Assembly: GCA_001938485.1 (NCBI GenBank) | Contig: MQRK01221946.1 | Span: 1 to 64,000 of the forward strand | Length of the DNA stretch: 64,000 nucleotides | From: Girardia tigrina | Lineage: Eukaryota | Reading direction: 5' to 3' | Shown: positions 32,485 through 33,805 of the stretch, one piece after another | How the letters are laid out: each line of letters opens with the position of its first letter | Position numbering within the stretch: the first letter of the stretch is position 1 | Translations under genes and position numbers: made by a program | The notes under the pieces: model-generated | What the model was told of the DNA's origin: nothing | The model's database searches: none | Seen by the model: only the letters and a program-made list of their open reading frames with translations

Positions 32485-33386
32485 NNNNNNNNNNNNNNNN
32501 NNNNNNNNNNNNNNNNNNNNNNNNNNNNNNNNNNNNNNNNNNTTTTGCCAGTTTCAGAAAATTGGGTAAATTAATTAGAATTGGTAAATTAAATAAATAA
32601 ATAACTGAGTATAGAGTGATTAAAATGATTAAATGAAAATAGTGGATTAAATTAAATAAATAAATTAAATTAGATAAATGAAATATGGTTGAATAGAATT
32701 GAATAAATTAATTAATTAAAAGGAAAATAAAAGAAAAGAAAAATGTTCACGGTGAATCATAGTCATGGCACTGAGTTTAACCAGAAAAAAATCGTTAAAA
32801 AGTTTCGTATATTCTGACTGATTGGAAAGTTTGACTAATTAAAAAGTTTAAACAAAGAGATTGGAGGATTGATTGTCGTCCGGCGGTGACAGGCGGTTGA
32901 GTTATGCAATCAATCAATCAACGTTTTGAATTTCGTTGATTGAAGCAAATTGTGAGCCTCATTGTTTTCACAATAGTAATTTCTTTCACTGGTAATTTCT
33001 TTCTTAGTGTATGTTTGTTGTTGTGTAATGCATGTGTGTGTGTGTATAAATGAAATTGGGATTGGTTTAAATGTGTTAGCGTGTTTGTGTGTTAATGAAA
33101 TGTGAATGCGATTGGTCTGTATATTGTGTGTGTGTTATCATTTTTAATTGTGAATTATAATCACAATTTTTTCATTTCCAATTTTTTTTTAAAAAAAAAG
33201 TTTGTCAATTTAAAAATAATAAAAGGTCTTTGTATCGATCTCAATTTTTTTCTTTTCAAATCAACAATTTTCAAGTTTAATTATTAAAACAATTTTAAAG
33301 ACGGTGGATTGCTATTTGAACGATCTTACATTGCAGTGTGTCGTAAAAACAATTTAAAAAAAAATAATAAAAGATTAACAAACAAA

Positions 33387-33805
33387 ATGGCCGATAGAGA
33401 AACGAAAGTTTACAGAGCTAAATTAGCTGAACAGGCTGAAAGATATGACGAAATGGTTGATGCGATGAGAGATGTCGCTAAGATGACTGNNNNNNNNNNN
33501 NNNNNNNNNNNNNNNTTATTATCCGTAGCATACAAAAACGTAATCGGAAGTCGGAGAGCATCGTGGAGGATAATGAGTAGCATCGAACAAAAAGCCGAAC
33601 AAAAAGATCCTTCTCGACTTCCATTGATTAAAGCCTAACGAAGTCAAATTGAAAAAGAATTGAAAGAAGTTACGCTGATATAATAGCCTTACTTGATGAG
33701 TTCTTGTTGGTGGCTGCAAATGGCGGTGAAGCTAAAGTGTTCTTCTTGAAAATGAAAGGCGATTGCTACCGTTATCTGTCCAAAATATCGTGGAGACACG
33801 GATTC
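33387..33805 (+). pseudogene. 14-3-3: 14-3-3 protein N-terminal ~140 codons, disabled, embedded in gag
   Basis: [32 protein letters not shown], then TAA at the conserved Tyr (33636), a frameshift near 33670, and AKVFFLKMKGDCYRYL. Confidence 0.95.

Follow-up and report, generated by a model that had tools for sequence, protein, structure and literature searches.

The closest described counterparts of the present locus are the LTR-mediated retrocopies of animals, which, in the part of Tan et al. (2016; PMC5131818) drawn on here, hold part of a host gene on the strand of the element, replace part of an ORF, are 3′-truncated and carry a short foreign insert at one join. Same-strand part-ORF replacement, 3′-biased truncation and short de novo inserts are given there as the marks of template switching by reverse transcriptase (RT). 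A second kind of capture, by gap filling, is represented by the Pack-TIR elements: the sections of Tan et al. (2021; PMC8277862) used here describe animal DNA transposons with genomic, largely non-coding filler, mostly single-copy, with microhomology and acquired independently of transposition, as well as a template-switch capture that has 45 bp of de novo sequence at one of its breakpoints. Rider/sun in tomato (PMC13317346) and Bs1 in maize (via PMC5131818) are LTR elements which, by the excerpted accounts, carry host sequence.

The present locus, a piece of a 14-3-3 gene in the gag gene of a Gypsy element, resembles the retrocopies in being partial, 3′-truncated, on the element strand, in place of part of an ORF and flanked at one join by a short foreign insert. 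Unlike them (in the excerpt from PMC5131818, found by lost introns and derived from mRNA), it keeps about 800 bases that are not mRNA and has no 3′ LTR. With the gap-filling captures it shares genomic, largely non-coding filler within the element, although the element there is a TIR DNA transposon and here a Gypsy LTR retrotransposon; that the gap filling described in the consulted part of PMC8277862 concerns DNA transposons weighs against the analogy. Unlike Rider/sun and Bs1, which moved with their cargo, sun being expressed (PMC13317346 and PMC5131818, as excerpted), the Gypsy copy here is dead. The titles and abstract openings searched in the open-access literature include none on a retrotransposon capturing 14-3-3.

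The window (the whole 64,000-nucleotide stretch of Girardia tigrina contig MQRK01221946.1 that was analyzed) is AT-rich, with 17–39% GC per kb, and crowded with transposon relics; a Gypsy-rich genome make-up is described in the accessible part of a Dugesia preprint (10.64898/2025.12.11.693146). The features of the locus are as follows.

31739..32162, + strand: Gypsy 5′ end (likely LTR start at TG) and leader, recognized by a motif common to related copies
32163..about 32484, + strand: gag codons 1–107, 95% identical to residues 1–107 of an intact gag (P0126)
32485..32542, no strand: gap of 58 N over the left junction
32543..32991, + strand: non-coding, putatively promoter-like DNA 5′ of 14-3-3, from motif counts against shuffles
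32992..33336, + strand: T-rich stretch (45% T) running from GTAATT to TTGCAG, a candidate 5′-UTR intron or trans-splice outron by its splice-like ends
33337..33386, + strand: A-rich 5′ UTR, at mRNA-level depth from 33372 (run X4, record 28) and at 33379 (run X2)
33387..33781, + strand: 14-3-3 (epsilon-like) codons 1–132 of about 246, from PF00244 and alignments
33782..33811, + strand: 30-nt spacer, 50% GC, matching neither partner and without a second copy in the window
33812..34519, + strand: gag from codon 154/155 to the end (388), with two zinc knuckles, from homology and Pfam
34750..35107, + strand: retropepsin protease region (PF00077, E 2.4e-06; PF13975, E 3.6e-06)
35296..35510, + strand: presumed RT start joined at 35436/35438 to presumed RNase H end (internal deletion), with loose contig ends at 35436, 35438 and 35510

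Elsewhere in the window lie a multi-exon C2H2 zinc-finger gene (12352–14284, − strand), whose first exon region is doubled around a 50-N gap at 14558–14607 (98–100% alike, probably an assembly overlap); a Tc1/IS630-type element (16844–18576, + strand) whose terminal inverted repeats are 54 bases long and whose transposase is interrupted by one stop; a Penelope-type GIY-YIG endonuclease relic (20348–21049) with a 70-base near-perfect hairpin at 20457–20610 and related pieces at 11815–12130 and 28115–28384; and, at 53454–56703, what is likely a non-autonomous foldback element, a 21/33-base tandem array flanked by long inverted repeats (328 nt, 98%). Broken ORFs directly after the Gypsy end (35511–36758, + strand), without a match in Pfam, contain a motif suggestive of the N-terminal region of a Maverick/Polinton-type DNA polymerase B. 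Depth was compared in four of the 24 listed public read runs: X1 and X3, which are probably DNA (a guessed label; X1 shares its study with a genomic run), and X2 and X4, which are RNA-like.

The gag CCHC knuckles followed by a retropepsin (PF00098, PF00077 and PF13975), together with intact gag relatives, place the host element in Ty3/Gypsy. Its 5′ end is marked by the motif at 31739, where four of the five related copies in the window start their likeness, with unrelated DNA before it; LTR status, and the place of the LTR 3′ end in 31739..32162, are presumptive. No second copy of this 5′ end occurs in the 64-kb window; related Gypsy 5′ ends or gag starts with the same terminal motif, about 70% alike, lie at 19370–19570, 27898–28094, 29359–29505, 29920–30059 and 59010–59160. 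Measured against one intact 388-aa gag, used as reference and accompanied by other intact 388-residue gags of the same family, the left half is 95% and the right half 88–89% alike, and both are about equally close to intact copies. The right half has a stop at 34051 and a frameshift near 34257. Between the halves 46 codons (108–153) are absent, equal to 138 bases; the N gap can conceal no more than 58 of these, so that 80–138 bases have been lost. The pieces 3′ of the protease are named RT start and RNase H end from motifs, tentatively; a Pfam search of these short pieces gave no match. The element stops at 35510, with no integrase nearby on its strand and no 3′ LTR in the window. With a broken gag, a deleted RT and neither integrase nor 3′ LTR in the window, the element is dead.

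The family itself is highly repeated (69,819 X1 contigs aligned over 3.9 kb), and gag loci were absent from viral contigs and met by one weak, irrelevant match in prokaryote genomes. The loose ends at 32484 and 33812 read on as plain gag in 37 and 40 contigs of X1, and in 19 of X3 at 33812. Since in addition none of 174 gag-like proteins has a 14-3-3 match (a count that would miss the join, which is out of frame), the ordinary family appears to be without the insert.

The 14-3-3 fragment starts with the ATG at 33387. PF00244 matches both of its pieces in a Pfam profile search (E 3.7e-21 and 3.7e-10), and at 76.2 and 40.2 bits against a curated cut-off of 33.2 they belong to the family. The frame is incomplete: likeness ends at codon 132 (position 33781), codon 84 (33636–33638) is a premature stop and a 1-nt deletion shifts the frame at about 33670–33672. 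The one stop and one frameshift of the sequence-only reading are thus borne out; its codons 1 to about 140, said to be uninterrupted, are indeed intron-free, although homology gives out eight codons sooner, and its gap of 27 N for nine missing residues is a run of 26 N (33490–33515) that keeps the phase and, with one kept base, does make nine codons. Global alignment of the coding part to an mRNA-type contig (L001, the poly(A) transcript of a relative and the sole result of one metagenome scan) needs a single 1-nt gap, with 45 silent and nine replacement or stop differences over 122 codons. Much closer are two records of X4, 28 (depth 5,049) and 29 (depth 3,403), which span 33372–33781 with four and five letter differences plus one gap; the latter, an intact mRNA contig, runs past 33781 into a normal 14-3-3 3′ half, of which the 64-kb window has no copy. 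At about 97–98% identity to the intact mRNA of a living gene, and with a stop and a frameshift, the copy is a young dead duplicate and reads as a pseudogene fragment. A dead native locus with Gypsy pieces on either side, for which the sequence-only reading had allowed, is ruled out by the intact contig that continues beyond 33781 and by the lack of the 3′ half in the window. Close relatives were two among 120 listed (P0009 at 88% and P0013 at 86%, counted over nine X); a protein atlas search added only generic 14-3-3 clusters, and both 14-3-3 loci in viral contigs were unrelated.

Between the left end of the insert and the ATG lie 844 bases, about 450 of them before the splice-donor-like site. 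ATTGG occurs seven times on their + strand, against a shuffle mean of 1.6 and with at least seven in 1 of 1000 shuffles, while the whole window is poorer in it than expected (140 vs 162); four copies (32561, 32580, 32821 and 32860) lie in 32543..32991 and three in the supposed intron. A GC patch at 32875–32907 (19 G+C of 30) is reached in 3 of 1000 shuffles; both tests were devised after the motifs had been named. The donor GTAATT at 32992 resembles, by eye, those of the zinc-finger gene of the window (GTAATA, GTATGG and GTAAAA). Depth in X2/X4 is 28/4 at 32975, 21/0 at 33308–33315 and 14,286/5,049 at 33379, and this jump between 33315 and 33379 indicates that the upstream part is not in mature mRNA and argues for a boundary near 33337. 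A first exon ending at 32991 is unsupported by depth, a very short exon, a more distant exon or trans-splicing being conceivable, and the joint 32991–33337 is not among the 15 joints listed (215 more exist).

The same upstream DNA exists nearly identically outside the Gypsy copy, in DNA and RNA-like runs: record 27 of X4 matches 32853–33058 with no mismatch and two gaps, record 9 of X2 matches 33038–33216, and a second allele class at 32781–32791 outweighs the window type in X1 and is the sole class seen in X2 and, at 32781–32782, in X3. X4 cover of 32486–32747, where repeats were skipped, was not used. Outside the copy, this DNA is probably attached to the native 14-3-3 gene. Being found there and yet absent from mature mRNA, it argues that the donor was not fully processed mRNA. 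A Rider copy in tomato reportedly kept genomic introns.

For the sequence-only reading this means that the ATTGG boxes at 32821 and 32860 and the GC-rich patch stand. Its 5′-UTR intron at 32992–33336 has the GT and the TTGCAG, but lacks a joint among the 15 listed and is preceded, at 32975, by mere background depth in the RNA-like runs; of its donor, pre-mRNA or genomic DNA rather than spliced mRNA, we retain that it was not fully processed mRNA and give up the exact intron. For the internal housekeeping promoter that the element would have received on that reading, a benefit finds no support, since in a dead element such a promoter would serve nothing; the alleles of the copy are not seen in X2 and X4, which carry another organism label and may lack this locus altogether.

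At the right flank, 30 bases separate the end of 14-3-3 (33781) from the resumption of gag (33812), so the two are not contiguous at about 33806 as the sequence-only reading had them. These bases match neither partner, nor the continuation of the poly(A) transcript of the relative, nor anything else in the window, the viral contigs or the prokaryote genomes; Rfam gave no match in 30500–36500. A diverged piece of 14-3-3 or an alternative exon is unsupported as their source (score 2.1 vs 21.5 for the control, p 0.078, 2,000 shuffles). Shared bases at the right join number at most two (33812–33813), beside the 30-nt spacer, and the left join lies under N. The placement of 14-3-3 inside gag is read from the collinear flanking halves, with the left junction under 58 N. 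Where RNA-seq reads across the 14-3-3/gag junction had been proposed as a check, contigs with 31 bases on each side of the left or right join were looked for, and there was none among the 32 pieces listed (121,885 more exist). Record 10 of X2 (1,952 nt, depth 38) aligns to 33673–33813 through the spacer, with 11 mismatches and three gaps; past that point it departs from the window, hinting that 14-3-3 and the spacer are found together elsewhere with no gag attached. The 14-3-3 and gag frames are offset by 32 bases, and 15 codons after the homology ends 14-3-3 runs into a stop; an in-frame 14-3-3–Gag fusion protein is rejected by this count and by cross-matches of 0/174 and 0/121.

Copy number is hinted at by the depths, read here relative to position 32975 as a rough guide, since summed depth is not copy number. 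Gypsy outweighs 14-3-3 in X1 and X3 but not in X2 or X4. X1 depth is 526 at 32975 and, at 32791, about 387 for the other allele class plus 135 for the window type, the latter equal to the 135 of the stop allele at 33638 (75 in X3); the far-upstream part looks low-copy in X1. Relative to 32975, single contigs of the coding part stand at 17–21 times (X1) and 29–34 times (X3), with 8.5 and 9.2 times for the largest contig of the intron part and 14 times (X3) for a 204-nt variant contig that has 15 differences; in the RNA-like runs the coding part reaches 108–795 times. X1 and X3 have 44 and 26 contigs at 33638, 26–63 distinct contigs per site over 33403–33795 and, in X1, a variant with a 54-base in-frame deletion (33413–33468) at depth 1,536. 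X3 is without the window-type alleles at 32781 and 32975, and X1 may be the source of the window itself. The 14-3-3 5′ coding part is thus possibly a multi-copy fragment family, and the agreement of X1 and X3 suggests tens or more dispersed genomic fragments; if these two runs hold much RNA, the gradient is simply the excess of mRNA over pre-mRNA. P0013 and P0125, two proteins from metagenomes, have a clean, near-identical 14-3-3 5′ half and, after codon 125, a common, unrelated-looking tail; they could point to 5′ fragments as well, or be assembly chimeras. By eye the tail has faint echoes of the native 3′ half; P0125 has an additional, unrelated 80-residue head, and no relatives of the P0013 tail or the P0125 head were found.

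We believe that the insert, which places about 1.27–1.33 kb of upstream DNA and 14-3-3 codons 1–132 between codons 107 and 154 of gag, arose when a break in a resident Gypsy element was filled in at the DNA level, with the genomic 14-3-3 locus or one of its copies as template, and put the probability of this at about one half. One Gypsy family lies on both sides, on the same strand and collinear, with part of gag lost between; the filler is a recent copy of a gene that is intact and expressed, and takes in DNA absent from the mature mRNA. The template may have been the native locus or a partial genomic copy, repair leaving the 30-base filler at the right join. The insert would have decayed later, in an element that had or gained more deletions and cannot move by itself. 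This is favored by the promoter-like, low-copy DNA in the insert, by the lack of any sign that the chimera spread and by the other deletions of the same element, a second internal one and the 3′ cut. Against it, a long pre-mRNA leader might take in the whole of the 844 bases, and introns in native codons 1–132, if present, would be incompatible with a plain genomic template.

Same-strand replacement of part of an ORF fits gap filling and RT template switching alike, and a switch from Gypsy RNA to a 14-3-3 transcript, unspliced or read-through (or to the transcript of a fragment copy), and back, the chimera integrating as a non-autonomous element from which the 3′ part was subsequently lost, is conceivable though rather unlikely. 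Sense orientation, a gag partly replaced and not just interrupted, and a 5′ LTR-like end agree with it, as do a 30-nt insert near the 2–26 bp de novo range and the 3′-biased truncation given in the excerpt from Tan et al. (2016; PMC5131818). The message was abundant (X4 depth 3,400–5,000, the main Gypsy contig standing at about 90) and the low, even X4 cover of 32853–33270 fits pre-mRNA, but the RNA would have had to hold promoter-like DNA and an unspliced intron or outron, microhomology is at most the possible two bases at 33812–33813, there is no 3′ LTR or target-site duplication to check, and the chimera shows no sign of its own multiplication. A bolder form of the same idea, in which tens to hundreds of 14-3-3 5′-half copies exist and the locus is a member of a non-autonomous Gypsy lineage which took promoter, leader and dimerization half from unspliced RNA and spread with them, we hold to be doubtful.

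It is distinctly improbable that the gag halves are not one element and that the scaffold joins a separate gag contig, across the 58 N, to a partial 14-3-3 duplicate abutting a 5′-cut Gypsy copy: two of the eight N runs of the window are flanked by duplications of the kind that scaffolding leaves, the family is highly repeated and the pieces listed contain no bridge, yet chance would have to supply the same family, on the same strand, broken within 46 codons of where gag resumes, with halves about equally close to intact gags and a right join in N-free sequence. Very improbable, finally, is a separate mobile family (Helitron-like or pack-type) that carried the spacer along with the 14-3-3 5′ region and inserted into gag, a deletion accompanying the insertion. 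The X2 contig that passes through the spacer and continues for 1.8 kb in other sequence would suit such a carrier, as would the many contigs at the stop codon, the 204-nt variant and the two metagenome proteins; against it are the absence of terminal repeats or a strong hairpin (−3.5 to −5.6 kcal/mol), a far-upstream part that looks low-copy, the 11 mismatches and three gaps of that contig, and the departure of P0013 from 14-3-3 at codon 125, not 132.

A host piece on the same strand in place of gag 108–153, its left join under 58 N, is what LTR-mediated retrocopies have, but of two LTRs only the 5′ end is present, the element stopping at 35510 (later loss is possible), and the coding part is intron-free yet accompanied by upstream DNA that is not mRNA. 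With the second LTR missing and intron loss undecided, we do not file it as an LTR-mediated retrocopy. It is a real but dead host-gene capture in a Gypsy relic that works like pack-type filler, and nothing suggests a function for the insert.

A host fragment with non-mRNA DNA in a Gypsy gag is not predicted by the model of template switching on mRNA and would be missed by screens for intron loss; the locus is genome debris, yet able, given the native locus and its start site, to separate DNA repair from reverse transcription as a route of capture. If confirmed, dispersed 5′-half copies of a conserved signalling gene would matter more, and a lineage that had spread with them would supply the element with a housekeeping promoter, its scattered copies being a source of truncated 14-3-3 RNA for the host.
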